Assembly (NCBI GenBank): GCA_949292215.1 | Contig: CASEYW010000043.1 | Coordinates: 12,736-76,735, forward strand | Source of the DNA: an uncultured bacterium | GTDB lineage: Bacteria > Verrucomicrobiota > Lentisphaeria > Victivallales > UBA1829 | DNA: 64,000 nucleotides | Direction: 5' to 3' | Shown: positions 2,672 through 54,940 of the stretch, in pieces | Position numbering within the stretch: position 1 is the stretch's first letter | Layout: every line of letters begins with the position of its first letter | Made by a program: the position numbers and the translations under genes | The notes under the pieces: model-generated | What the model was told of the DNA's origin: nothing | Database searches by the model: none | What the model saw: only the letters and a program-made list of their open reading frames with translations

Positions 2672-3379
2672 TTATTTTGAATAGGTTTTTGCACCTTCCC
2701 ATGATGTTGCATAACGAACCGTATCATCTTTCTCCGGATTGCTCTTGGGAGTCCCTTCGCGGGTAAAGACAGCAATCGGAGTCAGGAGTTTTTCCTTTCT
2801 CTCTTTGGGCGACAGTCCTGCAGGAACAAAACTCGCATCAAGCCCTTCCAGTTTATTCAGCATTTCCCCATCGGTCTTATAAACGATGCTGTATGTTTTG
2901 CCCCACGGGTCCAGAAAACCCTTGCCTTTTGCATAATTGGAAGTCGGATCCAGAAATTTCATTCTCTTCTTATTGTTTGCCCAGTCAGCAGGATCAACAG
3001 CCGTATCGGTTTCGGAATCCAACCCAGTCTTTACCGACGGATTATCATACTGGTAACCGATCATCATGGAAAAGAAAAATTTATATTTAGTATCCGGAGA
3101 TGTTGTATAACCACCCACGCAATATTGTTTTTCTGAGGTAACTTCTGATCCTGTATTAGGCGGAGCACCGGTTTCCGCACTTTTCGGATACGGCATCATG
3201 CTGTATTCCGTTTCGAAATTCTTGATAGCGAGCTGAATGGTATTGCACTCCGCAGCCGCCTGATTCAGTTTTGCCGTCTCCATGCTCCGGCTGATCACGG
3301 GAATCGCAAGTCCGGCAAGAATCACTATAATTCCCACGACCACAAGGATTTCCACCAATGTGAAACTTCTCTTTTTCAT
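2672..3379 (-). CDS. type II secretion pseudopilin-like protein (GspG-like, prepilin-type N-terminus)
   Basis: MKKRSFTLVEILVVVGIIVILAGLAIPV is followed by AKLNQAAAECNTIQLAIKNFETEY, which resembles the GspG-type helix. There is no H-X9-DG tail. The start was set at the internal M (3379) that directly precedes the pilin motif. Confidence 0.7.
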   Translation of the reverse strand: MKKRSFTLVEILVVVGIIVILAGLAIPVISRSMETAKLNQAAAECNTIQLAIKNFETEYSMMPYPKSAETGAPPNTGSEVTSEKQYCVGGYTTSPDTKYKFFFSMMIGYQYDNPSVKTGLDSETDTAVDPADWANNKKRMKFLDPTSNYAKGKGFLDPWGKTYSIVYKTDGEMLNKLEGLDASFVPAGLSPKERKEKLLTPIAVFTREGTPKSNPEKDDTVRYATSWEGAKTYSK

Positions 3380-3554
3380 TGGAACATACTCCTTCACGTT
3401 CTTAAGGTTCTTCCGTGGAGCATTATACAACATTTTTTCCTGCAAGTCAACCCCGTTTCCCGGAAAAAAACGGGAAGTTTTGAAAAAAAATGATTTTTTC
3501 ATCATCTTCCCGCTTTTTTTCTTTCCGGCGAACCGGAACAGACAAATAAATCCT

Positions 3555-6081: not shown

Positions 6082-6975
6082 TCAACGGGAGGATTGTCCC
6101 GATTTCATCTGTTCACGCGCTTTCCGCAGAGTCTCCATTTCGCTCTCGGAAAGACTGTTGATGCCGCTTCTGGAAATCTTGTCAAGAAGCCGGTCCAGCT
6201 CGGCACGGGAAACGGCATTGCCTTTGGTATAGGAATCATAGGCGGAAACGGTCCAGCCCCTTGGGGGTTTGGATGGTGCAGCTTCTCCCTGGTCCTCCGG
6301 ACGCGGAAACGAAACGCTCCGTTTCCCGAACAGAGCCCCCAGCGGATGCCAGACCACCACCTCCGCCGCCCACATCTCCATGAACAGAAATCCGCCGATG
6401 AATCCCCCGATATGAGCAAGATAGGCAATGTTCGAAGGCATCGTCTGCTGCTGAATCACTTCCAGAATAATGTAGACAATCGCCATCGTCTTCAGTTTAA
6501 CCGGCACCGGAAAAAAGAGAAGAAGCACCTGAATATTCGGCATCATCATCGCAGTCGCCATGATGACCCCCACGACTGCTCCGCTCGCACCAAGCAGCAG
6601 AAATGCGGAATTCATATTGAACACAAACCAGAGCAGATTGCCCGCCACTCCTGAAACCAGATACAGCGCCAGAAACCGCTTCCAGCCGAGAACAGACGCC
6701 GAAAGAGAACCGAACATGTAAAGCCCGAACATATTGAAAAACAGATGCCAGAAATCCACATGAGTGAATGCGGCAGTGACAAACCGCCAGATTTCAAACG
6801 TTGCAAGAACATTTCCGCTGAGAACAAACAACCCGGCGAACGACTGTCCCCCCAGAAGCGAAAGCAGATAAACCACCACATTGACCCCGATCAGCACAAG
6901 AAGACACTCCATTCCGCCTTCTGCCGACATCGGTCGTCCGGACGCCCTACGCATATAATCCCGATCTCCAAGCAT
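6082..6975 (-). CDS. rhomboid family intramembrane serine protease with C-terminal soluble extension
   Basis: Motifs FTHVDFWHLFFNM, GASGAVVGV (catalytic Ser) and HIGGFIGG (catalytic His), with multiple TM segments. The roughly 90-aa tail ends ...SRAELDRLLDKISRSGINSLSESEMETLRKAREQM. Confidence 0.85.
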   Translation of the reverse strand: MLGDRDYMRRASGRPMSAEGGMECLLVLIGVNVVVYLLSLLGGQSFAGLFVLSGNVLATFEIWRFVTAAFTHVDFWHLFFNMFGLYMFGSLSASVLGWKRFLALYLVSGVAGNLLWFVFNMNSAFLLLGASGAVVGVIMATAMMMPNIQVLLLFFPVPVKLKTMAIVYIILEVIQQQTMPSNIAYLAHIGGFIGGFLFMEMWAAEVVVWHPLGALFGKRSVSFPRPEDQGEAAPSKPPRGWTVSAYDSYTKGNAVSRAELDRLLDKISRSGINSLSESEMETLRKAREQMKSGQSSR

Positions 6976-7148: not shown

Positions 7149-7919
7149 TCAATCGGAAGAACCGCTCGGAAAAGCAAAACGCTCCAGATTCCGCCGGAGA
7201 AGATAAATGGTCGACCAGCCTCCGTGATACTCGACATCCTTCAGAACACTGAACGGAGACTGCGCAGCGGCATGACCGTCATAAAACCAGGTATTCGTAG
7301 TATTGTCTGAATGAATCAGCCAGCGATGGTTGCTGGTGGCAACGCAGTCCTGAAACACGGAAGCGGAAGATCCTGCCTTCGAATTGCCCGCAATATACCC
7401 GCTGTCAACCGCACCGAACACTCTGGAGAGAGACAATTTCTTCTTTATGAAACTTTTGAGATCAACAAACGAATGCACGGCATCGCCGCTACCCACTTTC
7501 AGGAAATACTCCTCTCCATGAAAACCGTATTTATGACAGTAAGGAGTTCCGTAAAAGCGGTATTTGATATCGCTGACCGTTCCATTCGAGCTTGCAATCC
7601 TGGAAGAAGGACAGAAATAGGGTTTGAATTTTGCTATTCTGGTCGTTGAAGCATCACCGGGAAGATAACCGTACTGAATCAGGAATTGAATCGTGCGCAG
7701 GCCGTTGGCATCCTTGATCGCGGAATGAACGAGATCGTTGTTCTCCGCAGCATAGGAGGCAATTCCAAGCCCCACTTGTTTCAGATTCGACAGACAGGCA
7801 GCGCCTTTCGCCTTGTCGCGCGCCCGATTCAGCGCCGGAAGCAGAAGCGCCGCCAGAATCGCAATGACCGCAATGACCACAAGGAGCTCTATCAATGTGA
7901 AAAATGCTCTTTTCATCAT
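7149..7919 (-). CDS. prepilin-type N-terminal cleavage/methylation protein, H-X9-DG/DUF1559-like
   Basis: [30 protein letters not shown] at the N-terminus and [19 protein letters not shown] at the C-terminus. The start ATGATGA overlaps the stop of the upstream LacI gene. Confidence 0.85.
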
Positions 7920-8989
7920 ACCCTCTCTTTCCTTCGAAAATGTTTATGATCCATGAGGTGTGTTTTGTTTTCCGGTGCCGCCGTCGACTGCTGAATCACA
8001 AGCAGAGGCTCCACCCAGACTTCCCGATGGATGGGGCGGCGACCGTTCCGCAACTGCTCCAGAATAAACAGCGCGGCAGAATACATTCCATTGAAATTGA
8101 GTTCCACAGAAGTCAGTTCCGGATACGAACTGGAGCCCTCGTTGACAATCCCATGCGTAATAATGCTGAGTTGTTCCGGAATCCGGATGCCGAGCTTCAA
8201 CGCGGCGGAAATCAAAGCCCGTCCAGTGAAAGAGCCGGAACAGTAGAGGGCTGTCGGACGCGGTTTCTGCATCAGGACCCGGAGGCTCCAGTCGAACATC
8301 CGTTTCATATAGTGCCGCTCATCCTCTTCCGCCTGCGGTTCTGCGGAGAGATCATCCCCGAGACGGTTCAAACCGAACTCCGCAAATGCCTTCTGCACCC
8401 CGTTCCATCTCTGACGGTGATAGTCAAATTTGATCGGCCCGAACGAAGCCATCACCTCCCTATGACCAAGTGCCGCAAGATACTCGACGGCCTGATACGC
8501 CCCCTTTTCCAGAGCCGCTCTCACCGAATATCTCCCGGGTTCTCCAAACATCACCAGAGGATAATCCGGATTTGACTCAAGAAATTTTCGAACGCCAGGA
8601 GTAAGATAACCGACATGAATCACGCCGCCGGCAACCCCGTCACGAATCAGCTCCGGAATGGAATCCTTCTTCTCAACCCGCGTGAAAAATTCAATCCGGC
8701 TGGACAACCCGCCACGCGAACAGAGCGCAAGGAATTCACTGATGTGTGCCAAATACGTCCCTCCGCGACGCAAATTTGAATCGCTGTCATTGATCACCAA
8801 CCCGACATCCACCGCCGGCTTGTTCCGGAGCTGACGGGCAGCAGCATTGGGCTCATACCCCATCTCTTTCGCTGTACGCAGAAGAATTTCACGGGTTTCC
8901 GGCCTCATGTTGCCGCGTCCGTTCAAGGCAGCGGAAACCGTTGAGACGGTCACACCGGTCTTTTCCGCTATATCCTTCAGTTTCACCAT
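7916..8989 (-). CDS. LacI family transcriptional regulator
   Basis: [55 protein letters not shown] is a LacI-type HTH, followed by a periplasmic-binding-protein-like domain. The start was set at the M preceding the HTH (8989). Confidence 0.9.
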
Positions 8990-9023
8990 TCTTCCCGCTC
9001 CAAAAAACAATAGAATAATTAAG

Positions 9024-9161: not shown

Positions 9162-10199
9162 TCATCCCTTCCGCGGCGGAGCTGTGGTTGCGCCGTTAAT
9201 GAATTCGACATCGAAGACTTCGTGAATAGGTTCCTCAATCTTTTTTTCGATCAGGGAAATCAGAAGCTCGGAGGCATAAAAACCGATCCGGTGAGGATGC
9301 TCATCCACGGTTGTGAGTTTGATCAGGCGCTGAACCTCGGGGAAACCGCTGAATCCGGTCAGAGAAATATCTCCCGGAATCCGGATCCCCATCTCTTTCA
9401 GACTCCAGTAGAATTCAAAGGCGACATTATCCCCGTCGCAGGCGATCGCGGTTGCCTCCGGGAAACGCTTCAGAAGACGCCGCAGAAATTCCTGCGGAGA
9501 AAGTCCGGAACGAAAATAGGATTCCTTTGTCAGCGGGAGGATCGAATGCTTCTGCAGCTCTTCACGGAACCCGTCGTAGCGGCGAGAAAGAATATCAGCA
9601 ACCTGGGATATATAAATAATTTTGCGATGACCGAGCTCATACAGATGCGATGCGAGCATCTGTCCGCCATGATAGTCGTCGTGCATCAGATGATTGAACT
9701 CTCCGCGAAGGACCGGTATCCGGTTTTTGTCGATCCAGAGCGTCGGAAGGGGCAGCGTTGAAAGGTGATAGAAGTTTGCAATGATGACCCCGGAAACTCC
9801 GCTCATTTTTAAAAACTGAAGTGTCTCTTCGGGATCGTTGTTCACAAGGCTGTGATAAAACAACGTATTGTAACCGTATGCCTGAGCCCCCTCCTGAATC
9901 CCGATCAGAAGGGAGGAATAGTACGACACGGAAACATCTCCGGTAAATACGGCAATTGCTCCTTTGAAACGGGAAGCGCGCGGACGAACCACTGTTCCGC
10001 CGCCTCGTGCACGGCGTTCCAGATAGCCTTTGACCACGAGTTCTTCCACGGCGGAATTAGCCGTCATCTTGTTGATTTGAAAACGCTCTGCCAAATCATA
10101 TTTGGAGGGGATGCGCTTTCCTTCCGGAAAGGCTCCGCTGCGGATCTGTTCGAGCAGCCATTCCGTCACTTTCTGTCGCTTGTTTCCGAGAGGTTCCAT
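9162..10199 (-). CDS. GntR-family HTH fused to a LacI/PBP-type sugar-binding domain
   Basis: KVTEWLLEQIRSGAFPEGKRIPSKYDLAERFQINKMTANSAVEELVVKGYLERR is a GntR winged helix. It is followed by a LacI-like effector domain (IAVFTGD..., ...LTGFSGF). The start was chosen at MEPLGNK (10199); the ORF extends to 10259. Confidence 0.8.
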   Translation of the reverse strand: MEPLGNKRQKVTEWLLEQIRSGAFPEGKRIPSKYDLAERFQINKMTANSAVEELVVKGYLERRARGGGTVVRPRASRFKGAIAVFTGDVSVSYYSSLLIGIQEGAQAYGYNTLFYHSLVNNDPEETLQFLKMSGVSGVIIANFYHLSTLPLPTLWIDKNRIPVLRGEFNHLMHDDYHGGQMLASHLYELGHRKIIYISQVADILSRRYDGFREELQKHSILPLTKESYFRSGLSPQEFLRRLLKRFPEATAIACDGDNVAFEFYWSLKEMGIRIPGDISLTGFSGFPEVQRLIKLTTVDEHPHRIGFYASELLISLIEKKIEEPIHEVFDVEFINGATTAPPRKG

Positions 10200-10319
10200 A
10201 CAATTCCGTTGTTTTGTTCCGGTTTCTGTTACTATAAACGCAAGGACTCTTTTTTGCAACTGTTTTTTTTGAAAAAATTAGACCGTCTAAGATTTTTTAT
10301 TTTTTCTATTCTTGTGATA

Positions 10320-10348
10320 TTGACAATCAATTTGAACCGTGATATAAT
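10320..10348 (+). promoter_or_regulatory. consensus sigma70-type promoter (TTGACA-17 nt-TATAAT)
   Basis: TTGACA at 10320-10325, an exact 17-nt spacer, then TATAAT at 10343-10348. It lies about 55 nt upstream of the SGNH gene start (10403). Confidence 0.65.
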
Positions 10349-10402
10349 TTTAATAGAACAAAAAATAACCCGGCAAAAATCAAAAAAAAAGAGGTTCGAG
10401 CC

Positions 10403-11146
10403 ATGAAAATGACAATCCTTTCAACCTGTCTTATGCTTCTGCTGTTTTCCGCTGCCGCCGAAGATCTGTATCGCCAGTTCCAGCCATCCCGGACAAGCCG
10501 GACCAGAGAAAGTACCGAATGGTCCATCACCTATACCTACAATGCCGTCGACAGCAAAAATCCGCGTCTTCTCCTGATCGGAGACTCCATCTGCAATGGG
10601 TACCAGGGAACTGTCCGGACAAAACTGGGAAAAGTCATGAACATCACCTTCTGGGCCACTTCGAAATGTGTCACGGACAAAGATTACTTCCGCGAACTGG
10701 ATCTGATCCTTTCGGCATACCGCTACGATGTGATCTCCTTTAACAACGGACTCCACAGTCTGACCACCGACCGCGAAGAGTGGAAGAATGCTTACAGCGC
10801 TGCCGTTGATTTCATTCGCAAAAAGTGCCCGGACGCCAAACTCTTCCTCACCAACAATACACCGCTGAAAGATCCGAAAAAAACAGCTCAGGCAAAAGAA
10901 TTGAACAGCATCATTGCGGAAACGGCAAGGCTCAAAAACCTGCCGGTCATTGATCTCTTTTCTCTGATGGACCCCCTCGACCGGAACAAATTCTGGAGCG
11001 ACACCTATCATTTTCGTAAACCGGCGGTGGAACTCCAGGCGGAACGGATCGCCCAAACAGTCCGCTCCGTAGCGAACAAGCTCAATCCGAAAGCCAATAT
11101 CGTTCAGCGCGGAACCGAAACCGGTCCGAATGGAGCACTGAAGTAA
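10403..11146 (+). CDS. secreted SGNH/GDSL-type hydrolase (probable carbohydrate esterase)
   Basis: Signal peptide [19 protein letters not shown]. The SGNH blocks are [19 protein letters not shown] and SDTYHF. Confidence 0.8.
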
Positions 11147-11181
11147 ATTCCCATACAATCCAAAAACGAAGGATCAGACAA

Positions 11182-11976
11182 ATGAATATCTCATTCCCAA
11201 GAAACAAGAAATCTGACGGAGAGTATTTTACATTGATAGAACTTCTTGTTGTAATAGCAATCATTGCGATTCTTACAGCAATCCTTCTTCCTGCACTGAA
11301 CAAAGCTCGTACCGCAGGAAACGCAGCAGCCTGCGTTTCAAATCTGAAACAGATCGGCATCGGAATGAACAGCTATTCCGCAGACAACAACGACTATTAT
11401 GTTGCCGCCAGCCAGAACAACGAAACCGGTCTGCAACTCTACTGGTACAGCGCAATCGGCGCCTATATTTCCACGGCACACCATCCGGAATACAAACTTC
11501 ATGGAACAATGGGATACAGGCCATGGATGAAAGTCTATCAGTGCAGTCCGGCGGAAAAACAGCTTTCCGGAACCATTTATCCTTACAACTGTGCGTTTTC
11601 CTATGGATATCTGCGCTGTCAGTCCGGCAACCTTTCCTATCGTTATCCGGGGAATGGAAGCGTAAAAATCGGGAGTCTGACCCGGCCGGCATCACGGCTT
11701 CTGGCAGCAGAAAGTTCGGCTATTGACAATAACAGCGACTGCGGTGCATTTCTCAGTGCCAATCAGGGCGGGAACACTCCGATCTACTTCAAACATGGCA
11801 GCAATCTCTCCAGGGCAGAACAGAAAGCGCTGTTCAATACCTGGAGCAATCCACCCTATCCCGGAACGATTCCCGGCAAGGCGAATCTGCTTCATGCTGA
11901 CTTTCATGTAGAATCCTATACAGCAGCAAAATACAATACAAAAATCCGAAATCTGGTTGACTACTACAATAATTAA
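11182..11976 (+). CDS. prepilin-type N-terminal cleavage/methylation protein, DUF1559-like (degenerate tail)
   Basis: [27 protein letters not shown] at the N-terminus. The tail [15 protein letters not shown] is a degenerate H..D motif. The gene lies 24 nt upstream of GH-A paralog 1. Confidence 0.8.
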
Positions 11977-12000
11977 TTCAATAGCACAAGGAATCAGCAA

Positions 12001-15000
12001 ATGAAAATCGCATACATCCTCATTCTCTCCGCATTCTGTATCCTACTTTCCGCCAACGAAGGTCTGAAAATTCCATCTTGGATTCAGGTAAAGGAAAACG
12101 GAAATCTGCTTGTTGATAAAATCAATTTTTATTTCGGAGTCACCAACTTCAAAAAGGGAAACGACGATTCCGGAAGTGCCAGTAAATTTCTTTGCCCGGT
12201 CTCCACTATTGAACTGGACAGCCGAATCTGGCGGAGTCTTCTGATCCCCTATGCCGATGATCCAGACTATAAAGTTACGGTGGACAAAAAACTTTCCGTG
12301 CTTTCCAGTGAGACTGTTGCATGGAGAAATTCTTTCACCGCCACCAAACCGGGTGTAATCAAAAGCTCTCATGTTACGCTCACACTGCCTCCGGAACCGT
12401 TTGACGTCATCATTGACGGCAAAAAGCTGAAATTCGGCAAGGAGTATGATCCCAAAGTTTATTTCCGCGGCCCCTGCAAACGAGTAGCCATTCTCGCTTC
12501 CGGCACCGAATTGGAAATCACGGGAAAGGATCTGTTCCTTTCCACCAGCGACATGCGCCGCTACAATCCGGTCTTCCGCATCAACCTGTCCTTTGAAATG
12601 AAAGCCGACGATCCAAAAACATGGCAGTCCTCGAATCTGGAACTTGTCATCCGCCGGAACGGAATCCGGATGGACCGGGAAACATTCTTCAAATTGGAAA
12701 AAAAATTCACTCCCGTTTCTCTTGCCGGAGTTCTGAACAATACCGTTACGGATGACAAGGCCGACGACGGCATCTGCGGATGGACCGACAAAGGTCCTGA
12801 TGATTGCCTTCACAGTTATAAATTCAAAGGACGCACAGAATTCTGCGGGATTCCTTTCGAACTGGCGGACCCGGCAGCCAATCAGGGCAAAGTTCTTGTC
12901 GGAATCAGCCATCCGGCGAGACGCCTGAACCTGCCATCGTCCGTAACGATCCCAATGAATGGCATTCGTGCAGAGGGACTCTATTTTCTGCATGCCAGCT
13001 CCTGGATCGGCAAAAACACTCCCGGTTCCTATACGATTTGCTACAAGGATGGTTCCCGTGTGAACATTCCGCTCCAAACCAACAAAACTATTTTCAACTG
13101 GTATACCTGCGGCGGCAGCGATCAGGCGGTAATCGGCTGGAAAGCGCCGCAAGGCAGCGCCGGACTGACGCTCTTTCCATGGACAAATCCAAACCCGGAT
13201 AAACCGATGGATTCCATTCTCTTTACGATCAATCCGGAACGGCAGTCGGAAAGCATGGAGTACACGCCGGTTCTGCTTCTGTTCGGTATTACAGCAGTCG
13301 ACATGAAACCTTTTCTGCCCGAGGAAGAGCCGCCAGCGGAGATCGATGACTCAAAATGGATCGCATTCGACGGCCACAACGAGATCGAAGGATCCTTTCT
13401 TGACAACTCCACTCTGAACCATGTTCCCGCAGGGAAACACGGCTGGGTTACGGTCAAAGACGACCGCTTCTTTTTTGAAAACGGCATGGAAGCACGCTTT
13501 TTTGGATTTACGACCGAGGTCACGGGACGCAGTTATCCTAAAGGGCAAATCGCGGCATTTGCCCGCAGACTTCATGCACTGGGAGGTAATATTATCCGCT
13601 TTATCGGACTGGTGGGCCCCGGGGAAGAAAATCCCGTTGACCGGATCTATCGGAAAGGAAGCAGGAATGAACTAGATCCGGAACGGATGGATACATTCTG
13701 CTATTTTATCAGCGAACTCAAAAAAAATGGAATTTATATTCAGCTTGACCTTCGTGGAAACAATGTCATCGATAACGAAATCCCCGGAATGAAAGGGATT
13801 AAATGGAGTCACTATTCTATTCTTTCGCCTTCCGTGGAAAAGCTCCAGATTGAAAATTTAAAACGGATTCTCTCCTACAAGAATCCATATACTGGGATAG
13901 CTGTCGGACAAGACCCCGTCATTGCCATGGTCATGGTGGAGAATGAGGATTCCCTTTTTTATGAAGCAAATCTGGCGTCAATCAGAAATCCGGTCGCAAA
14001 ACGGGAATTCCAGGCTGAATTCAACCGTTTTCTTCTGGAGAAATACAAACAACGAGAAGCTTTGAAAGCGGCATGGAAAGGAGCTCTTAAAGATTCCGAA
14101 GATCCCGCCAAAGGAACGGTGGAAGCTCCTCTGGATTTCAAAAAACGAGATTTCACGCCGGAACGGAAACAGGAAATGCGGATCTGGCTGGCGGATGTTC
14201 AGGGAAGACATTACCGGAATGTGATTCAGGCGGTCCGGGAAACCGGATGCAAAGCACCCTCCATCGGGAGCAACCACTGGACAAACGATCCCATGGACTT
14301 TTATGTCAATGCGAAGTACACGGATATTTTTGACCGTCACTCCTACTGGTCGCATCCCGTGGTGGAGATCGGGTGGGATCTGCATGAAATTTCGTTCAGC
14401 AATCAGCCCTCGGTCGGATTGTCGGATGGAGGTTTTCTGAGAAGTTTTATCTCGCGCCGCGTTGTTGGGAAACCATATGCGCAGACCGAATGGGATGTAT
14501 CTTCCACTAATGAATTCCGAGCCGATGCCCAGCTCTTCATCCCTGCCTATGCCTCCATGCACGGCTGGAGTCTGTTTCACTTTCATTTTCAAATGGAGGA
14601 TTTTCGTCTCAACTGGAATCCGCGTACAAGAACAAACACGCTTCTACCGCAACGGGATCCTCTCCAGATGGCCTTGTGGCCGGCGGTCGCCGCCATGTAC
14701 CTCAAGGGCGATGTCAAAAAGGCAGACCGGACCTATTATGAAACTCTGACTTATGAAGACGCCCTCGCGGGAAAAAAGGCAGACTCGGAACGGATCGCAC
14801 GGGCGGGACTGCGCGGAATCGCCGGAATCAATTTCGATCCGGAATATCCTGTCAAGTCCGATCCCTCGCTGATCCCGCCTGAAGATGCCGAGGTGATCGA
14901 ATCGGTCACAAAACAGCTTTACTGGGATATTCCAAACCGTCAGTTCCGGATCATCACGCAGGGAACAAAGGGCTTCGCCGGGTTTACCAACGGGAAAAAA

Positions 15001-15363
15001 GTCGTCTGCGGAAATACGGTTTTCGACATCAAAACCGATTTCGCCGCCATTATCCTGACCAGCCGCGACAATACCGCGCTGGACTCCTCCGGGCACATCC
15101 TCATGACGGCAGTTGCCCGCTGCTGGAATAGTGGAACGAAATACAATGCTTTGAAAACGCGCTTTGCCGAATCCGGAAAAGCGCCGATCCTGCTCCAGCC
15201 GGTCGAAGGGACCGTGCATCTTCCAGCCACGCGCAAACTCTCAGTCTATGCACTGGATCTTTCGGGAAAGAGGATGAAAAAAATCAATACGTCATTCAAC
15301 GGCAACCTTCTTTCAATTCCTCTCGACAACGCAATTCATTACGAACTGGTTGCCGAACCCTGA
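12001..15363 (+). CDS. secreted ~1100-aa clan GH-A-like glycoside hydrolase, paralog 1
   Basis: Signal peptide MKIAYILILSAFCILLSA. Blocks shared with the three paralogs are HVPAGKHGWVTV, ELKKNGIYIQLD, NPYTGIAVGQDPVIAMVMVENED (N-E acid/base motif) and GKPYAQTEWD (nucleophile-type T-E). CAZy family not assignable by eye. Confidence 0.7.
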   Translation: MKIAYILILSAFCILLSANEGLKIPSWIQVKENGNLLVDKINFYFGVTNFKKGNDDSGSASKFLCPVSTIELDSRIWRSLLIPYADDPDYKVTVDKKLSVLSSETVAWRNSFTATKPGVIKSSHVTLTLPPEPFDVIIDGKKLKFGKEYDPKVYFRGPCKRVAILASGTELEITGKDLFLSTSDMRRYNPVFRINLSFEMKADDPKTWQSSNLELVIRRNGIRMDRETFFKLEKKFTPVSLAGVLNNTVTDDKADDGICGWTDKGPDDCLHSYKFKGRTEFCGIPFELADPAANQGKVLVGISHPARRLNLPSSVTIPMNGIRAEGLYFLHASSWIGKNTPGSYTICYKDGSRVNIPLQTNKTIFNWYTCGGSDQAVIGWKAPQGSAGLTLFPWTNPNPDKPMDSILFTINPERQSESMEYTPVLLLFGITAVDMKPFLPEEEPPAEIDDSKWIAFDGHNEIEGSFLDNSTLNHVPAGKHGWVTVKDDRFFFENGMEARFFGFTTEVTGRSYPKGQIAAFARRLHALGGNIIRFIGLVGPGEENPVDRIYRKGSRNELDPERMDTFCYFISELKKNGIYIQLDLRGNNVIDNEIPGMKGIKWSHYSILSPSVEKLQIENLKRILSYKNPYTGIAVGQDPVIAMVMVENEDSLFYEANLASIRNPVAKREFQAEFNRFLLEKYKQREALKAAWKGALKDSEDPAKGTVEAPLDFKKRDFTPERKQEMRIWLADVQGRHYRNVIQAVRETGCKAPSIGSNHWTNDPMDFYVNAKYTDIFDRHSYWSHPVVEIGWDLHEISFSNQPSVGLSDGGFLRSFISRRVVGKPYAQTEWDVSSTNEFRADAQLFIPAYASMHGWSLFHFHFQMEDFRLNWNPRTRTNTLLPQRDPLQMALWPAVAAMYLKGDVKKADRTYYETLTYEDALAGKKADSERIARAGLRGIAGINFDPEYPVKSDPSLIPPEDAEVIESVTKQLYWDIPNRQFRIITQGTKGFAGFTNGKKVVCGNTVFDIKTDFAAIILTSRDNTALDSSGHILMTAVARCWNSGTKYNALKTRFAESGKAPILLQPVEGTVHLPATRKLSVYALDLSGKRMKKINTSFNGNLLSIPLDNAIHYELVAEP

Positions 15364-19875: not shown

Positions 19876-20379
19876 CTTGCACCTTCCAATTCCAAAAAAG
19901 TTTTTCTAATAAGGTAATCCGTTTTGCGGATTTTTCCAGACGGGAACCGAAAAAAGTTTTCCCGTTCATTCTCGGCGGCTTTCATAGAAAATTGTTGTTT
20001 TCCGTTTCCACGGGAGTTCCCCGGTTTCCTGAAACTCTTCTGCCGCAGCAGTGCCATCGGAACGGTGTTCTCCGAGTTCAAGATAAACCCTCCCGAACCT
20101 CTTGAAAAAGAGACATTCCGCCATTGTCTGGAAGCGCCGTCGGAAAGAGTTTGACGGAAAGATGGAAATAAACGAAAAAAAATGACATGCAATGCACTTT
20201 TTTTCCATATTTTTCCGGTACGATTATCTTTGCAAATCACCAGCGGGCACGATAACTTATTGACGTCAGATCTGCAAAGGACGGAATTTGCCGGAAACAA
20301 ATTTGCGGTAAACTTCCGGAATCAACAGAACGGCCGGGGAGATGTACACTCGAAGGCCGGTAAACTACAGGAGAGTGAC

Positions 20380-23300
20380 ATGACATTCGGAACAAGATCG
20401 TTTTGGGGCTCAGCAGCGGCGGGACTCCTGCTGCTGTTCGGCATCCCGCAAAGTGAAGGTGCTCTCAAAACCTCGAAGGATGGAAGTTTCCTCGCAGATA
20501 AAATGAGTTTTGCACCGGGAAAAAACAATACGGTAAAAATCACGGAGGAGAAAGACGGAACTTCTCGGTATGTCCAGACCGGAAAGAATCCTGTGCTCAG
20601 CTGCCAGCTGGAACCCAGCGACCGCCTTCTGCTGCTTGATGAAACCCCCTTCAACATCTCCCAGGAATTTCCGAGGGATAAAAAAGAGTTCTTCCGGAAC
20701 CGGAAAGTAAAATTTCTCAGCATACCCCTGTTCTGGGGACGCCGCCTGAACTTTTCCGGAAACATGCGGGTGACTCTTCAGGACAAGCGCTTCTATACGG
20801 AGTACAGTATGGGAGGCGCCTACATTCTGGAAATCAGACCGGAAAAGAATGAATCGCGCCTGGAACTGGAGATCCGGGAAGACAAACCGGAATTCACTGC
20901 AATTCCGCTGGACTCCTTCCTGAACGGAAAACTGCCGGAAGCAATCAAAAAAATACCGACGGGAAATTTCTCCTATCAGAACTTTCACAACTTCCTTTCC
21001 TTCCAATTTCCGAAAAAAGCAGGCAGCGTTCTTTTTCCATCCGGAGAAGTAACGATTCCGTTCACACAAAAGGATGCGAAAGCACTGGTGCTCGTACATG
21101 GAGTTGATCCGGAGTTCCAAAAAGCGGAAATCGGAACGCTTTCCATCGTCTATCAGGACGGCAGGGAGGAAAACTTCCCGATCGAAGCCGGAAAAAATGC
21201 GGCATCCTGGAAAAACTGCGATCCCGTATCCAATTTCCGTCTGGTCTGGAGTTCCATCAGCGACAGTGACTTCTATGCGTTCGGCATGTCCCAGTTTCCG
21301 CTGAAACCGGGTGCGGTTTCCCTCAAGCTGAAGACGGGAGAAAACAGCCGTCACTGGGGAGTTCTCGCCGCAAGTCTTCTGAACCGCCCGATCCCGGATC
21401 GCGATCTTCCGGAAACCTTCTATGTCAGAGAGGGTAAAGAATGGAATACTTTCACCTTTGAGAAAGATATCGTAAAGGGGTCCTTCCTGGATTTTTCCGG
21501 ACAGAACCATGCCCCGGCGGGAAAGTTCGGGCATATGACAGTCAATGCAAAAGGACAGCTCGTTTTTGAAAAAGATCCGTCGAAACGCTTCCGGATCGTC
21601 GGAGCCAATCTCTGCAGCGGGGTCTGTTTCCCGACAAAAGGTGAAGCGAAAACCATTGCCAGACGTCTCGCCACACTCGGCTACAACATGGTCCGATTCC
21701 ACCGCTACGATGAGGCGCTCATCAAAAAGAAAGCCCGGACAAGCACCGAGATCGACATGAAGCAGCTGGATCTTCTGGAGTACTTTGTCTATGAACTGAA
21801 AAAGAACGGCATCTACTTCACGGCAGATATCTATTGTCTCCGCAACACCCGTCCAGGGGATAAAATTCCGGAGGCCGATCTTCAGCAGAAATCGAAAGCG
21901 CAGATGAAAACACTGCTTCCGCTTTCCGAATCAGCCATGGAAAACTGGAAAGCCTTCACAAAAAACTGGCTGACCCATCGGAATCCTTACACCGGATTGA
22001 AATGGACGGAAGAACCCGCGTTCGCCTTCGTCCAGTTTCTGAACGAAAACAATATTGACCACCGCTGGGATGATTTTTCAAAACTGCAGACCATGTACCT
22101 TCTGAACTTCGATCCCTGGCTGAAGGCAAACGGTATTGTTCCGAAATCGCATGAGCTGACCACGGACAACCCCGCCTTCTGCGCCTATCTGTTCACGCTT
22201 CAGGAAAAAAACATCCGGGAACAGAGAGACTTCCTGCGCAATGAACTGAAAATGAAGACTCTCATCACCGACTGCAACATGGAAACCTCCAGTTATCCGC
22301 TGGCTCATTTCAAGGCCCGTTATTTCGATCTTGCAGACGCCCACGGCTATTTCGATCATCCAAAATCCAAATACGGATTTGGAAAAGGGACCCACACAAT
22401 GCAGCTGAATCCGCTGACGGCAACCTTCCTGCCGATCGTACACGATCTCTCCCGTGCGCGTCTTTATGGCAAGCCGGTTGTATCCACCGAATGGAAATTC
22501 TGTGTACCGAACCGTTTCCGCGCTTACAGCGGCCCCATCATGGGCGCATATCTCGCACTTCAGGACTGGGACGGGCTGTTCCAGTACTCCTGGGCGCATG
22601 CACGGCACATTGCCATCTGGAATACGGGACACTCCACTTTTGACTCCGCAAACGATCCGCTCGCACATGCCACGGACCGGATCACGATGCTGCTGTTCCG
22701 CCGCGGTGATGTCGCACCAGCCAAAGAGGCTGTCGCGTACCAGGTTCCGGCGGACTATCGGAGAGCCTCCGCCCAGAATCCGCCTATGGAGGTCGAATCA
22801 TTCGCAGCCCTGGTCCGTACCGGATCCGTGATCGAAGGAACACGGGTTCCCGGAGTCACGGTTCTTTCCGATAAAGAAATCCGAAGCAGAAATCCTTTCC
22901 CGAACAAAAAACTGAACAATCTCTACAACGAGATGCGGACCCGGGGTATTGCACGCAGCTCAACCGGAGAAATCACGCATGACATCCGGCAGGGAACACT
23001 TTCAGTCATAACTCCGAGGGCGGAAGTCTTCTCGCTGGACAAAGGGGGACTGAAAGGGAAATGCGTCTCCGTTGCCGAAGCGAAAACGCCGCAGACGATC
23101 GCCTTTTTCTCCATGGATGGCAAGTCCATTGCGGAAAGTCGCGATCTGCTGATCATTCATCTGACGAATTCTCTCAACCGCAACACCCGGTTCGATTCCC
23201 CGTCAATGCGGGAACAGCAGCCTGCAACGAGCTATCGTCAGCAGCTGATCCGGACCGCGGCTCCGAAGGTTCATCTGAAACTGGACGGACCGGTTGCAAA

Positions 23301-23439
23301 TCTGAAGATCACGGCTCTTGCCTCCAATGGCAAGGAACTCGGTCCTGTGCAATTTACCGGAAGAAACGGTTCCCTGGATTTCGTTCTGAACAATGCACTG
23401 TATCCGGATGGAGTTCTCTACTATCGGATTCAGCGCTGA
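20380..23439 (+). CDS. secreted clan GH-A-like glycoside hydrolase, paralog 2
   Basis: The start was set at MTFGTRSFWGSAAAGLLLLFG (signal peptide, GGAGAG RBS upstream). Shared blocks are HAPAGKFGHMTV, ELKKNGIYFTAD, NPYTGLKWTEEPAFAFVQFLNEN and GKPVVSTEWK. Confidence 0.7.
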   Translation: MTFGTRSFWGSAAAGLLLLFGIPQSEGALKTSKDGSFLADKMSFAPGKNNTVKITEEKDGTSRYVQTGKNPVLSCQLEPSDRLLLLDETPFNISQEFPRDKKEFFRNRKVKFLSIPLFWGRRLNFSGNMRVTLQDKRFYTEYSMGGAYILEIRPEKNESRLELEIREDKPEFTAIPLDSFLNGKLPEAIKKIPTGNFSYQNFHNFLSFQFPKKAGSVLFPSGEVTIPFTQKDAKALVLVHGVDPEFQKAEIGTLSIVYQDGREENFPIEAGKNAASWKNCDPVSNFRLVWSSISDSDFYAFGMSQFPLKPGAVSLKLKTGENSRHWGVLAASLLNRPIPDRDLPETFYVREGKEWNTFTFEKDIVKGSFLDFSGQNHAPAGKFGHMTVNAKGQLVFEKDPSKRFRIVGANLCSGVCFPTKGEAKTIARRLATLGYNMVRFHRYDEALIKKKARTSTEIDMKQLDLLEYFVYELKKNGIYFTADIYCLRNTRPGDKIPEADLQQKSKAQMKTLLPLSESAMENWKAFTKNWLTHRNPYTGLKWTEEPAFAFVQFLNENNIDHRWDDFSKLQTMYLLNFDPWLKANGIVPKSHELTTDNPAFCAYLFTLQEKNIREQRDFLRNELKMKTLITDCNMETSSYPLAHFKARYFDLADAHGYFDHPKSKYGFGKGTHTMQLNPLTATFLPIVHDLSRARLYGKPVVSTEWKFCVPNRFRAYSGPIMGAYLALQDWDGLFQYSWAHARHIAIWNTGHSTFDSANDPLAHATDRITMLLFRRGDVAPAKEAVAYQVPADYRRASAQNPPMEVESFAALVRTGSVIEGTRVPGVTVLSDKEIRSRNPFPNKKLNNLYNEMRTRGIARSSTGEITHDIRQGTLSVITPRAEVFSLDKGGLKGKCVSVAEAKTPQTIAFFSMDGKSIAESRDLLIIHLTNSLNRNTRFDSPSMREQQPATSYRQQLIRTAAPKVHLKLDGPVANLKITALASNGKELGPVQFTGRNGSLDFVLNNALYPDGVLYYRIQR

Positions 23440-24347
23440 ACAGACTTCCGATACGCCGAAGGAGAAAGACCGTGCACATGTTTGAACATCTTGCTGAAAT
23501 GAAGCTGGTTGGGGAAACCGGTCTGTCCGGCGATCTGCTTGATGGTCAGAGTGGAGGACGCAAGCAGATCCGCCGCGGTCTGAAGTTTCAGCTCCAGGAA
23601 ATACTGCTTCGGCGATTTTCCGAAATGTCTGCGGAACAGGCGGTTCAAAGTCGAAGGGCTGAGATCCAGCGTATCGGCAAGAACAGAAAGTCGAAGGGGG
23701 TTTGTGATATTGCTTCCCAGCAGGTTCACAGCCTCCTGAAGCCGGAGATCGCCGCAGGCAGCACTCTTCGCCTCTCCGCCGGAAGCGATTCCAGAAAGTT
23801 CGCTCAGGAACTCGAAACAGAGTCCCTGAATATGAATCCGCGACTCCTGATCCTTCTGAAACAGCAGATTTCTCAGCTCCAGGAGACGCCGAAGAACCGA
23901 TTCCGGATGGGGAAGGCAGAGATACTGCTTCTGAACAAGTCCGTTCAGAGAAAGCAGATGCGGCAGAATGGCGCCCCTGAAACCAATCGAGAATTTCCGG
24001 CAGAAGCCTCCCGGGCCACACCGAAGAACACTATCCTCGCCACGGGGAATCAAATAGGCGTCTCCCGGTTTGAGGAGGGTTTTCTTTTCCCTGGAGATCA
24101 CGAGGAGCTCTCCCTCCACAATGATTTCCACGGCAAACAGAAAATAGTTCTCATGCTTCCAGAAATTCTCCTTGCGCCAAACCGAATGGGCGATGAAATC
24201 CGGCCAGAGAAGCATCGCAGCTGTGGCGTCCGTGTTCCAGGTCACGGTTTGCCCGCTGCTCTGCTGCTCAAAAAAATAATCGGTCGAAAGTTTCGCCACA
24301 AGAGAATCGAAGACAAATTTCTTCATAACCGCGGAAAACTCCAGCAA
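23430..24347 (-). CDS. AraC family transcriptional regulator
   Basis: The C-terminal double HTH reads LSVLADTLDLSPSTLNRLFRRHFGKSPKQYFLELKLQTAADLL...IKQIAGQTGFPNQLHFSKMFKHVHGLSPSAYRK. The N-terminal half is cupin-like. Confidence 0.9.
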   Translation of the reverse strand: MLEFSAVMKKFVFDSLVAKLSTDYFFEQQSSGQTVTWNTDATAAMLLWPDFIAHSVWRKENFWKHENYFLFAVEIIVEGELLVISREKKTLLKPGDAYLIPRGEDSVLRCGPGGFCRKFSIGFRGAILPHLLSLNGLVQKQYLCLPHPESVLRRLLELRNLLFQKDQESRIHIQGLCFEFLSELSGIASGGEAKSAACGDLRLQEAVNLLGSNITNPLRLSVLADTLDLSPSTLNRLFRRHFGKSPKQYFLELKLQTAADLLASSTLTIKQIAGQTGFPNQLHFSKMFKHVHGLSPSAYRKSVQR

Positions 24348-24551: not shown

Positions 24552-25217
24552 ATGAATAAGGCAAACCATCAATTCACTCTCGTGGAGCTCCTGGTGACAA
24601 TCGCAATCATTGCCATTCTTGCCAGTCTGCTCCTGCCGGTTCTTCAGCAGGGACGCCGCAAAGCTCTGGACATCAGTTGCTCTGCCAATCTCAAACAGAT
24701 GGGAACCCTGTTCGCCCTCTATGCAGATTCAAATGATCAGTTCACGCCTCCCTATGAAGCGACCTGCGGCACCGTGACTTATGCCAAGTGGCAGGACTTC
24801 TTTCTCCCGATCCTGAAAAAACCGTTCAAGTACAACCATGACTCCTGGAAATACAAAGAATTCTACTGTCCGGCACAGCAGCCGGTCAAGAACACACGAA
24901 TGCACTACGGCATGAACGGTTACATCACAACTCCTACGAAACGTGCTCTTTTCATTCGTTTGAAACGTCCCTCCGCACGCCACCTTGTTTCCGATATCGA
25001 AAAAATGCCCGATACCTACTGGGACTGGAAACCAACCGCTCTGTATCGCGGTTCCAAAGTGAACCCGAGCATCTCTCCGGACGGAGTCACTTCCCGCCAC
25101 CTGAACCGCTTCGGAGCGAACATTCTTTTCGCGGACCTGCACGTACAGGCAATGAAAATTTCTCAGATTCCTGTCAACGGGAATAACTATTTCTTCGGCC
25201 AATACACGGAAGATTGA
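24552..25217 (+). CDS. prepilin-type N-terminal cleavage/methylation protein, DUF1559-like
   Basis: [27 protein letters not shown] at the N-terminus. The tail [19 protein letters not shown] is a degenerate H..D(L)H motif. The gene is divergent from the AraC gene. Confidence 0.8.
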
Positions 25218-25469: not shown

Positions 25470-26483
25470 ATGCTTCGGAAAAAAACGACGGCCAAAGATG
25501 TGGCTGAACGAGCGGGAGTTTCCCGTTCACTGGTCTCCATGTACCTCAGGAGGAATCCGAACCTCTGGATTTCAGAGGAAACAAGGACACGGCTTGATGC
25601 GGCCATCCGGGAACTGGGATATCGGCCGAATCGGTCGGCTCAGATTCTGCGGAGCGGGAAATCCCGTATTGCCGGGGTTGTCCTGGGCGGGATTTCGGGT
25701 TCCTTTGCCTCCTGTCTTTCCGAAGCCCTCATGGAAAAGATGGAGGAAGCGGGCTACCGTGTATTTCTCGGAATCACACGCTACGACCCCGAACGAGAAC
25801 GCCGTGTTCTGGAATCCATGATGAATTTTGAAATTGATGTCCTTTTCTACACCCTTGAACCGGACTATGTCAAAGATCTGCTTCTGCAATGTGCGGCATC
25901 CATTCCGGTTTTTGTATCAGAGAAGAGAACGGGGATGCCATTCCACAGCATCCGTTTCGATCTGACAGGCGCTTTGAAAAACGCATTGAGATATCTTTCC
26001 ATGCGGCGGATAAAGCGCGCAGCTCTGCTCACCAACCGCATTGGTTTCGGCGAGCAGGATTTTTTTACATCGAATGAGAAAGGGTTTCCGGAATTGCGCG
26101 CCTTCCGTTTCAACAGCCGGAATGGAAACGAGGAAACTGTTCTTCGGGAAGTTGCCCGTTTTTCTCCGGAAGCCGTGATTTCCCTTGCAGGAATTCCGAT
26201 GGCTCCGGCAAGAGAACACCTCAACCCGGCGACTCTCTGGATCGATTCCTGGGCGCTTCCGTTTCAGAGACAGGAAGCGGAAATCCATCCGACTGGCTCA
26301 GTTGTCCGCCCCTTCCGGGAGTACGTGGAAACTTTATCGGAAGCGCTGCTCGATGCAGCCCGCAATCCGGAACGCAAACCATCCGACCGGACCATCCCAG
26401 CCATCTTCCTGAAAAGGAAAGAGCAGAACGATCTCCGGAAATCCCTGCTCAACGATCCTTATTACCAAACTTTTGAATATTAG
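25470..26483 (+). CDS. LacI family transcriptional regulator
   Basis: KKTTAKDVAERAGVSRSLVSMYLRRNPNLWISEETRTRLDAAIRELGYRPNRSAQILR is the HTH. A PBP-like effector domain follows. Confidence 0.9.
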   Translation: MLRKKTTAKDVAERAGVSRSLVSMYLRRNPNLWISEETRTRLDAAIRELGYRPNRSAQILRSGKSRIAGVVLGGISGSFASCLSEALMEKMEEAGYRVFLGITRYDPERERRVLESMMNFEIDVLFYTLEPDYVKDLLLQCAASIPVFVSEKRTGMPFHSIRFDLTGALKNALRYLSMRRIKRAALLTNRIGFGEQDFFTSNEKGFPELRAFRFNSRNGNEETVLREVARFSPEAVISLAGIPMAPAREHLNPATLWIDSWALPFQRQEAEIHPTGSVVRPFREYVETLSEALLDAARNPERKPSDRTIPAIFLKRKEQNDLRKSLLNDPYYQTFEY

Positions 26484-28769: not shown

Positions 28770-29618
28770 TTACTTGGCGTATGCCTCAACCTCCCAGAGG
28801 GAATATCCAAACGGAGTGGTTCGTTTCACGCCCTGAATCCGAATGTAACGCGTATTCTGCGGTTTGACTTTGATCGTCTCCACAGCGCCCGATTTTCCGT
28901 CTTTCTTGCGGAAAACTTCCGTGAAATTCTTGCCGTCCTGCGAGAACTGGACAGCATACTCCTTGCCGGCAGCCTGTTCCCATCTGAGGACGAGTCTTCC
29001 GATCGTCTTGGCGGCACCGAGATCAAGCATAAGCCATTCGTTGTCCTTGCGTTCGGAGGACCAGCGGGTGTTGTTCCTGCCGTCCACAGCATTTTCCGGA
29101 ACCAGATTCCGCTCCTTTGAGCTGGACGTTGCCTTGGCGCCGAATGCCAGATTATCGGAGGCAGGATAAACCATCATTTCCCACAAAGAGTAGCCGAACT
29201 GAGAAGCACGCTTTTTACCAAGAATACGGATATAACGCGTTTCACGTGGCTTGATCCGGATAATCTCACGAGCACCCTTCCTGCCGTCAGTCACGGTGAA
29301 GACATCCGTGAAGGTCTTGCCGTCGTTGGAAAACTGTACAACGTAATCCCTGCCGGCAGCCGCCTCCCAGTCAAGGCGGATCTGCCCGACCTTCTTCGGC
29401 TGACCGAGATCAAGCATAAACCACTCGTTGTCGTTGCGTTTGGAGGACCAGCGGGTGTTCCCCCTGCCGTCGATTGCCTTGCCGGGCTCATACTGTGCAG
29501 ATTCCGAAGAACTCGCGCTCGCAGTCGCCCCTTTTGCAAGATTCACCATTTCATCCGCGTAAAGCCCGCAGGCCGCGGCGGAAACGAAGGCCAGAAAAGC
29601 CAACATTGTCTTTTTCAT
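28770..29618 (-). CDS. secreted protein with two tandem F5/8 type C (discoidin, CBM32-like) domains
   Basis: Signal peptide MKKTMLAFLAFVSAAA. There are two ~125-aa repeats, each with AIDGR.NTRWSS...NEW.MLDLG...G...L.WE.AAG..Y.VQFS.DGK.FT.VF and a ...TRYIRI.G..R...FGYSLWE ending. Confidence 0.85.
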   Translation of the reverse strand: MKKTMLAFLAFVSAAACGLYADEMVNLAKGATASASSSESAQYEPGKAIDGRGNTRWSSKRNDNEWFMLDLGQPKKVGQIRLDWEAAAGRDYVVQFSNDGKTFTDVFTVTDGRKGAREIIRIKPRETRYIRILGKKRASQFGYSLWEMMVYPASDNLAFGAKATSSSKERNLVPENAVDGRNNTRWSSERKDNEWLMLDLGAAKTIGRLVLRWEQAAGKEYAVQFSQDGKNFTEVFRKKDGKSGAVETIKVKPQNTRYIRIQGVKRTTPFGYSLWEVEAYAK

Positions 29619-37027: not shown

Positions 37028-37045
37028 CACCAAAGATGATGAAAA

Positions 37046-37750: not shown

Positions 37751-37753
37751 ATC

Positions 37754-40712: not shown

Positions 40713-40721
40713 CAATATTGA

Positions 40722-42844: not shown

Positions 42845-42846
42845 TT

Positions 42847-43881: not shown

Positions 43882-44083
43882 CCGTTTTCCTGAATTTCTG
43901 TTTGTTTTCCGGTCAAAGCCATCCAGACAGCCTTTTTCTCCGATGGTCTGCTGTAATATGGCACAATTCTTAAAAAATACCAGTAAAAACAGTTTCCGGA
44001 AAAGAAACTCCGGACTTTTCCTGTTGCAATCGGAAGAATTCAGGTATATCTTAAAACAAATCCCGCAACCATTTCAGGACAGA

Positions 44084-47523: not shown

Positions 47524-47525
47524 GA

Positions 47526-54911: not shown

Positions 54912-54940
54912 TTGCCTCTTGTTTTGTTTTGAATTATAAT
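54912..54940 (+). promoter_or_regulatory. sigma70-type promoter (TTGCCT-17 nt-TATAAT) for the pseudopilin/GH-A operon
   Basis: TATAAT at 54935-54940 and TTGCCT at 54912-54917 with a 17-nt spacer, about 65 nt upstream of the ATG at 55005. Confidence 0.5.

Follow-up and report, generated by a model that had tools for sequence, protein, structure and literature searches.

Type IV pilins and the pseudopilins of type II secretion systems (T2SS), such as GspG, PilA, and ComGC, have a short basic leader, phenylalanine and glutamate at positions +1 and +5 (F1 and E5), and a long hydrophobic helix. In the Planctomycetes, Verrucomicrobia, and Lentisphaerae, the DUF1559 (PF07596, 'SBP_bac_10') or H-X9-DG (TIGR04294) proteins, with the consensus CxSNLKQIG...CPS...H...DG, rank with the largest paralog families to which no function has been assigned. 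For Planctopirus limnophila, the DUF1559-type family has been reported as the largest such group; it numbers 68 members there, of which two are essential (PMC10632474). The polysaccharide utilization loci (PULs) of Bacteroidetes and the AraR-controlled arabinan operons of Bacillus place a substrate-responsive regulator beside co-transcribed genes for an exported esterase, a glycosidase, and one non-catalytic, operon-specific accessory protein. Here, we analyze a 64-kb stretch of contig CASEYW010000043.1 (64,000 nucleotides (nt), hereafter the window) from an uncultured Victivallales bacterium (phylum Lentisphaerae). Bird and chicken gut metagenomes contain this DNA, and its close homologs carry the labels Victivallales or Victivallaceae. 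Our subject is a cassette in which a consensus promoter precedes genes for an SGNH/GDSL esterase, a pilin-like protein (pp1), and a very large predicted clan GH-A glycoside hydrolase (GH) that we call H1, with a regulator gene divergent from them. A sequence-only reading of this DNA had proposed that the pilin-like protein and the hydrolase form a conserved functional pair. We find that the pairing is conserved and selected, but not dedicated, since pilin-like genes also occur with other glycosidase families or with a regulator only. Rather, it is one case of a lineage-wide rule of one pilin-like gene per sugar-regulated catabolic operon.

The cassette resembles each of these systems in part. 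Like the pilins and pseudopilins, pp1 has a short basic leader, the residues F1-T-L-I-E5, and a long hydrophobic helix; it differs in having no glycine at position -1 (Gly(-1)) and in its head of ~200 residues, which has no significant structural match. In addition, the pilin genes of the window are scattered singly in catabolic operons and not clustered with gsp or pil genes. Beyond its orthologs, the relatives of pp1 are thousands of DUF1559/H-X9-DG proteins that have the above consensus in common, yet its DG is replaced by DF in pp1 and by DS in pp2, and pp1, pp2, and pp3 (the latter two being further pilin-like proteins of the window) stay below the PF07596 threshold. As in the Bacteroidetes and Bacillus systems, a regulator lies beside an exported esterase, a glycosidase, and one accessory gene, and as in the Bacillus operons, the promoter lies between two palindromes and the domain pair of AraR is found in the regulator. 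Unlike the SusC/SusD PULs, the cassette has a pilin-like accessory and no ABC or other transporter, and no SusC-like TonB-dependent transporter or SusD-like pair was seen in or beside any cassette examined.

The pilin-like gene and the hydrolase gene are a conserved, selected gene pair. The pairing is retained in related genomes, at orthologous loci whose hydrolases are 87, 78, and 48% identical to H1. At the first two, the layout of a regulator divergent from esterase, pilin, and hydrolase is unchanged; at the third, the divergent genes run pilin, hydrolase, esterase, and the pilin is orthologous and full length. In a clade of 43% hydrolase identity, the order is hydrolase, pilin, esterase, again divergent from a regulator, and the pilin head bears no relation to the head of pp1; that both copies occur together in two metagenome-assembled genomes identifies this clade as a paralog. 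Three further paralog lineages are also paired with pilin genes. In a relative, AraC-type regulators stand with pilin-hydrolase units in neighboring cassettes, and these units belong to two lineages distinct from that of H1 and from the 43% clade. Overall, both flanks can be seen for 14 Victivallales hydrolase genes, and 13 of these have a pilin gene next to them on the same strand. In a sample of 80 metagenome loci, both flanks could be inspected at 58, with a pilin directly upstream in 25, downstream in 2, and absent from either side in 31, and 27 of these 31 have no pilin-like gene within 5 kb. Where a metagenome locus holds any pilin-like gene, it stands beside the hydrolase in 27 of 31 cases. 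Pilin genes were recognized by a relaxed regular expression (admitting variants such as FSLIELLMIV in locus L028), and these adjacency counts are lower bounds; a contig scan with a narrower hydrolase alignment found 11 loci. By chance, at least three of the four window hydrolases would have a pilin directly upstream with P ~0.011 (eight pilin genes among ~55), and adjacency on either side at 13 of 14 genes would occur with P ~1e-6, or ~0.002 when five independent lineages are counted.

Purifying selection acts on pp1 as on the neighboring enzymes, with dN/dS (the ratio of nonsynonymous to synonymous substitution rates) of 0.10–0.15 for pp1, 0.06–0.15 for the esterase, 0.08–0.10 for H1, and 0.04–0.09 for the regulator. 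Co-divergence of pilin and hydrolase, which the sequence-only reading had named as a check on the pair, is also seen (Mantel r 0.89, P 1e-4, in a matrix where identities between unrelated pilin heads are noisy because end gaps were free), yet it does not discriminate, because any vertically inherited syntenic neighbors co-diverge.

This hydrolase family is not the only one to be paired in this way. Hydrolase homologs in Planctomycetota, in Sumerlaeota, and at 27 pilin-free metagenome loci have no pilin partner, and pilin-like genes accompany GH78-like, GH99, GH130, and GH127-like genes, or a LacI regulator alone. Four Lentisphaeria pilin-like genes, picked solely for lying on long contigs, all stand in operons that have a LacI or GntR-LacI regulator and encode glycosidases of other families (GH99, GH130, GH127-like) or large unannotated proteins. 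Within the window, two units fit the rule of a pilin in a sugar-regulated operon, one of pp4 (a fourth pilin-like protein), a LacI regulator, and a GH78-like gene, and one of a LacI regulator and a pilin. The superfamilies of all the parts are known, as is the expansion of DUF1559-type proteins; what appears to be new is the systematic placement of pilin-like genes in sugar-regulated glycosidase operons. In searches of the literature on DUF1559, H-X9-DG, Victivallis pseudopilins, and Lentisphaerae carbohydrate-active enzyme operons, we found no functional study, no account of the link to glycosidase operons, and no account of the missing Gly(-1). Since the pilin protein is operon-specific, selected, and dispensable for the hydrolase in other phyla, its role is likely to be a lineage-specific one in envelope logistics and not in catalysis. 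With one such gene per sugar-regulated glycosidase operon in Lentisphaerae, and with heads that vary, "unknown function" becomes a concrete hypothesis, that of a substrate- or cargo-specific fiber subunit.

The prepilin leader that had been read on pp1 stands in part. In its favor, pp1 scores 20.5 bits against TIGR02532 (cut-off 16.3; pp2 21.2, pp4 19.9), and it has the Phe(+1), Glu(+5), and hydrophobic helix by which type IV pilins and T2SS pseudopilins are recognized, but the canonical Gly(-1) is missing. Matches to GspG, PilA, and ComGC are weak and cover the N-terminus alone, with pp1 aligning to the first 60–100 residues of PilA, geopilin, and GspG. In an AlphaFold2 (AF2) model of mean predicted local distance difference test (pLDDT) 79, pp1 has an N-terminal helix of 51 residues (residues 18–68) and a small alpha/beta head, the strands of which pack after the helix; the best Foldseek match is Myxococcus xanthus PilA, in the helix region only and not significant (E 0.76). 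Six orthologs are 79, 79, 79, 71, 69, and 61% identical to pp1, and the next relatives are below 40%.

A phmmer search of ~5.8 billion proteins returned nearly 8000 relatives of pp1, mostly carrying PF07596 and named 'DUF1559 domain-containing protein' or 'type II secretion system protein' in their sources. For pp1 itself, both Pfam N_methyl and DUF1559 are below threshold (PF07596 cut-off 23.3; pp1 18.9 bits, pp2 18.9, pp3 19.1), while the window pilin gene at 342–1082 passes PF07596 with 38.9 bits. The TIGR04294 model matches none of pp1 to pp4, its nearest approach in the window being the gene at 1950–2702 (18.1 bits against a cut-off of 19); by eye, the H-X9-DG motif is degenerate, as H...ADF in pp1, H-X9-DS in pp2, and H-X11-DG in pp3. 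Relative to this family, pp1 has a 28-residue insert. Judged by these matches, pp1 is a divergent relative of the DUF1559/H-X9-DG family. It is one of many operon-specific pilin paralogs of this lineage, each of which has the common N-terminal assembly helix (F1, E5) and a head of its own. Phe(+1) is present in 119 of 119 pilin-like homologs, a set in which Glu(+5) was demanded by the search pattern, so that its frequency is not an independent count. The residues at -1 in the eight window pilin-like genes are Y, I, R, Q, D, F, N, and S. Classical prepilin peptidases require Gly(-1), and the near-absence of this residue together with an invariant Phe(+1) implies either a peptidase of another specificity or no cleavage.

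We tentatively read the cassette as a repressor-controlled glycan-utilization operon in which pp1 is a substrate-specific subunit of a shared T2SS/type IV pilus-like fiber, and we give this reading somewhat less than an even chance. The AraR-like regulator would repress the strong promoter through two flanking palindromic candidate operators, and the promoter would drive the three exported proteins as one transcript. The SGNH esterase would remove acyl groups from the glycan and H1, as a retaining clan GH-A glycosidase, would cleave it. Assembly of pp1 into a fiber would fall to a common machine of the type II secretion or type IV pilus-like kind, and in the fiber the pp1 head would attach to the operon's glycan or keep the operon's enzymes at the cell surface. 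In function, the pilin-like protein would thus correspond to the SusD-like proteins and the surface glycan-binding proteins of Bacteroidetes. Filament assembly is favored because F1 is invariant, E5 is shared, and the helix is long, and one variable head per regulon parallels the SusD-like proteins. In Planctomycetes, a related phylum, it has been shown that gold-labeled dextran binds to pili-like fibers (PMC5394234). The substrate may be an acetylated beta-mannan or a beta-galactan-type glycan, a guess of low confidence that draws on the esterase, on the similarity to GH5 mannanases, GH42, and GH50, and on genes of GH130 and GH38 that adjoin one of the paralog cassettes.

Several observations weigh against this fiber reading. 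Gly(-1) occurs in just 9 of the 119 homologs and in 4 of 75 distinct locus-encoded pilin proteins, so that processing and fiber assembly are conjectural. The 64-kb window contains no secretion or pilus machinery gene. A Foldseek search of the PDB with the pp1 head gave no significant match and detected no carbohydrate-binding fold, and the similarity to GH5 mannanases, GH42, and GH50 behind the substrate guess is distant. The fourth hydrolase paralog of the window, H4, has no adjacent pilin-like gene, some hydrolase homologs in pilin-rich genomes are likewise unpaired, and four of the eight pilin-like genes of the window have no adjacent enzyme gene. Finally, none of the RNA runs checked contains the locus. 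A broader form of the fiber reading, in which the DUF1559-type genes of Lentisphaerae would be a repertoire of glycan-specific adaptors, each induced with its own operon and inserted in one shared fiber, is possible but doubtful. If true, the repertoire would be a third strategy of polysaccharide capture, beside SusCD and the binding proteins of ABC transporters, and would use leader processing without the need for Gly(-1).

The alternative that survives best, although we consider it unlikely, is that the pilin-like protein acts as a cargo-specific secretion adaptor or surface anchor, an anchoring or presentation role being the example that the sequence-only reading had offered. In the periplasm, it would bind the cognate enzyme, hydrolase or esterase, and load it onto a T2SS pseudopilus or tether it at the surface. 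Tight linkage of the pilin gene, usually directly upstream, to genes for very large Sec-exported enzymes is consistent with this, as are heads and enzymes that diverge in step within clades and the replacement of the head in cassettes whose enzyme is down to 43% identity. The N-termini of the hydrolases bear on the same question. Lipobox-like starts (LTAC, FAC, LAC, LSC, LTC) are found on the hydrolases of the 48% ortholog (locus L005, 5051–8398) and of the 43% paralog clade (loci L012–L015 and L017), whereas H1 (window 12001–12060) and its close orthologs have A|N(E/D)G in place of the lipobox. The H1 lineage seems to have lost a lipid anchor and may need another, since the lipobox Cys is gone. 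However, the 48% ortholog has both a lipobox and an orthologous pilin. Pilin genes also occur alone or with a regulator only, single pilin genes head operons of several different enzymes, and hydrolase homologs in other phyla do without a partner. Characterized type II systems are not known to use cargo-specific pseudopilins.

It is less probable still, and in our view distinctly improbable, that no fiber is involved and that an uncleaved N-terminal helix keeps the protein in the inner membrane, where it would bind or sense glycans or oligosaccharides in the periplasm. The missing Gly(-1), the short and basic leaders, and the Pfam family name SBP_bac_10 would suit such a binder, and so would the repeated coupling to LacI- and AraR-type regulators, including the regulator-pilin pair without an enzyme. 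On the other hand, the invariant F(+1), with E(+5) in all members identified, would be superfluous in a plain anchor, these being residues of cleavage, methylation, and packing, and a Peptidase_A24 (prepilin peptidase) gene adjoins a hydrolase homolog in a related genome. That the adjacency is a product of chance, given the high density of pilin-like genes (eight in 64 kb) and one unpaired hydrolase paralog in four, is very improbable against the P values given above, the 27 of 31 metagenome loci, and a pairing that outlasts both rearrangement and replacement of the pilin head.

The predicted fold of H1 is that of a clan GH-A glycosidase. The Sec-type signal peptide that had been called on H1 is present (MKIAYILILSAFCILLSA|NEG). 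The AF2 model (pLDDT 84) matches GH50 exo-beta-agarases (2e-11), a GH42 beta-galactosidase, and GH5 mannanases and mannosidases in Foldseek with probability 1.00, and a PDB search with the H1 family profile finds GH5 mannanases (1e-7) and a GH42 enzyme (2e-7). Two alignments, of 18 and of 32 hydrolase sequences, show no variation at N648, E649, or E830. E649, in the NE motif, is the candidate acid/base and E830 the candidate nucleophile, on what alignment with GH5 and GH42 suggests are strands 4 and 7. The barrel model, these matches, and the invariant residues together place H1 among the retaining clan GH-A glycosidases; within the clan, these searches assign it to no named GH family. With members of this clan, H1 shares the barrel, the invariant NE, and another invariant Glu that follows after 181 residues, a GH42-like spacing, and with GH50 it shares beta-sandwich domains N-terminal to the barrel. 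Membership of GH42 itself, which would show as a full-length PF02449 match, is not found, as H1, H2, and H4 have no match and H3 covers profile positions 115–299 of 376 only. Identity of H1 is 10–15% to any solved enzyme and at most 15% to solved GH42 enzymes. GH148 EngU, from a GH42-like orphan family, is likewise only weakly GH42-like and has Lentisphaerae homologs (PMC5725463); compared by description, H1 differs in having no CBM4 insertion, which defines the EngU architecture, and in its ~1100 amino acids (aa) with extra N- and C-terminal domains. A Pfam search of H1, H2, and H4 gave no match at all. The hydrolase family comprises 4866 clusters at 50% identity (E<=1e-30), mostly of full-length proteins of ~1100 aa, and a very large family of clan GH-A glycosidases is hereby flagged, with no Pfam match for three of its four members in the window. 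A DxxGGW(T/H)DQG motif is conserved in the second N-terminal beta-domain of the family.

The regulator combines the two domains typical of AraR, an N-terminal winged helix of GntR type joined to a sugar-binding domain of PBP1/LacI type (Pfam GntR 1e-10, Peripla_BP_3 4e-21, Peripla_BP_1 2e-16). A PDB search found effector domains of the LacI family, including the AraR C-domain 3tb6 at 1.7e-14, and also the helix-turn-helix of YvoA. Its true start is likely near 10193, since orthologs are called at 343 aa; these are 93, 80, and 61% identical and occupy the same place. Regulators encoded in the 43% paralog cassettes show 76–79% identity to that of the window even though the hydrolases share only 43% identity and the pilin heads are unrelated, which suggests related effectors. 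The esterase belongs to the SGNH/GDSL superfamily by its family model and by its GDS (block I) and DTYH (block V, within SDTYHF) motifs, and it starts, as had been called, with a Sec-type signal peptide, predicted to be cut before ED. The closest solved structure is 4h08 (6e-19), and there is a weak NCBIfam match to the acetylxylan esterase/glucomannan deacetylase AxeC2. The gene is retained in every orthologous and paralogous cassette, and the enzyme is probably a carbohydrate deacetylase.

The promoter and gene arrangement that the sequence-only reading had described are borne out (Table 1). The promoter agrees with the sigma-70 consensus in all positions, and TTGACA-17-TATAAT has a single exact copy in the window, where dinucleotide-preserving shuffles lead one to expect 0.01 (1 of 100 shuffles had one). 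The 87% and 78% ortholog loci retain the two hexamers, which are also invariant in an alignment of five paralog-cassette loci with the window. The three co-directional open reading frames 3' of it are separated by gaps of 35 nt (esterase/pp1) and 24 nt (pp1/H1), in which the ribosome-binding sites GAAGGA and AAGGAA precede the ATGs of pp1 and H1; no terminator-like site was seen in either gap. Upstream of the promoter, TTAGAC-C-GTCTAA is the sole perfect copy in the window and is kept in orthologous loci; it appears in paralog cassettes as TTRAC-N3-GTYAA, and may act as an operator. Downstream of the -10 element, the alignment of the window with the paralog cassettes has a conserved block, ATAACCCGGTTAAA, and ATAACCCGGCAAAA is the half-degenerate window copy of a palindrome, TAACCCGGTTA, found in those cassettes; this copy is candidate operator 2. 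The promoter and both palindromes are conserved in orthologs and in paralog cassettes, and repression of the cassette would act through the two. This makes a clean, conserved pair of promoter and candidate operators available for a poorly studied gut phylum.

Table 1. Positions in the window of the cassette, its candidate control elements, and the other hydrolase and pilin-like genes discussed.
Feature	Position	Strand	Remarks
AraR-like regulator	9162–10259	-	GntR-type winged helix + LacI-type sugar-binding domain; divergent from the esterase-pp1-H1 genes
Candidate operator 1, TTAGAC-C-GTCTAA	10278–10290		perfect palindrome; ~72 nt upstream of the predicted transcription start
Sigma-70 consensus promoter, TTGACA-17-TATAAT	10320–10348	+	-35 at 10320–10325, -10 at 10343–10348, extended -10 TGn, score 12/12
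Candidate operator 2, ATAACCCGGCAAAA	10365–10378		about +10 to +23 of the predicted transcript
Secreted SGNH/GDSL esterase, 247 aa	10403–11146	+	Pfam Lipase_GDSL_2 (PF13472), 39.2 bits against a cut-off of 32.9
pp1, pilin-like, 264 aa	11182–11976	+	15-residue leader, F1/E5 + hydrophobic helix, aromatic-rich head, conserved Cys51 and Cys121
H1, predicted secreted clan GH-A glycosidase, 1120 aa	12001–15363	+	N-terminal beta-sandwich domains, (beta/alpha)8 barrel at residues ~480–905, C-terminal beta domain
Pilin-like gene	7149–7919	-	two-gene unit with LacI-family regulator 7916–9010 (-), 4-nt overlap, no enzyme adjacent
H4	20377–23439	+	fourth hydrolase paralog
AraC-family gene	23430–24347	-	directly downstream of H4
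pp4, pilin-like	24552–25217	+	heads unit with LacI 25470–26483, then GH78-like rhamnosidase 26499–28691 (730 aa)
pp2, pilin-like, 247 aa	55005–55748	+	promoter-like TTGCCT-17-TATAAT upstream at 54912–54940
H2, hydrolase paralog, 1031 aa when repaired	55783–58877	+	pp2/H2 gap 34 nt
H3, hydrolase paralog, 1095 aa	60563–63850	-	Pfam Glyco_hydro_42 1e-12, weak Cellulase (GH5) match
pp3, C-terminal 38 codons	63882–64000	-	translation ends NWNPID*; pp3/H3 gap 31 nt

The recurrence of the pilin-then-hydrolase order at 55005/55783 and 64000/63850 also holds. That three of four hydrolase paralogs are paired stands as well, with pp1 to pp3 beside H1 to H3 and H4 unpaired, but the window has eight pilin-like genes and not three. 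These begin at 342, 1950, 2672, 7149, 11182, 24552, and 55005, with one leaving the window end at 64000, a density of ~1 per 8 kb. The 5' part of pp3 and its regulator gene fall just outside the window. On the independent scaffold L025, the full pp3 has 224 aa (N_methyl 2.5e-7), and the order is an AraR-like regulator (346 aa, weak GntR match), pp3, and H3. H3 is 24% identical to H1 over 964 aa. H2 is read in two frames in the window, 55783–57372 and 57513–58877. We considered and rejected that it is a pseudogene: the window has AAA at 57351–57353, and contigs of two runs of the source study, X1 (depth 40.8) and X4, have AAAA (an extra A after 57350), and L025 encodes an intact H2 of 1031 aa that is identical to the repaired reading. 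The split is therefore a defect of the window sequence. A 520-aa gene of the ADP-ribosylglycohydrolase family (58941–60503, +) lies between H2 and H3 and converges on H3, and the same is seen in L025.

Other genes near the pilin-like and hydrolase genes were also noted. In four metagenome loci (L075, L076, L086, and L087), two tandem pilin-like genes precede the hydrolase homolog. The Peptidase_A24 gene of the related Victivallaceae contig (L009, 4188–5045; the same as L016) is directly upstream of a hydrolase homolog, the N-terminal part of which is called as a separate 224-aa gene. In the window, the AraC-family gene following H4 is divergent from the unit headed by pp4, and after the GH78-like rhamnosidase of that unit a protein with two F5/8 type C domains is encoded on the opposite strand (28770–29618). 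A rhomboid protease gene (6082–6975) lies 173 nt downstream of the pilin-like gene at 7149–7919. We considered whether this protease might process leaders without Gly(-1), an idea based on this single adjacency. The pilin-like genes at 1950–2702 and 2672–3433 (-) are in tandem, downstream of queA; the upstream one, at 2672–3433, has no DUF1559 features, carries a GspG-like 'DPWG' motif, and has the best GspG score of the window (5e-9). A cluster of the surface-polysaccharide-synthesis type extends over 33613–45178, with an ABC-2 permease, a Wzt-like ATPase, a methyltransferase, a polysaccharide deacetylase, glycosyltransferases (GT) of families GT4, GT2, and GT8, and a GT9 heptosyltransferase, and is followed by a LacI-GH2 unit at 45190–48572 (-).

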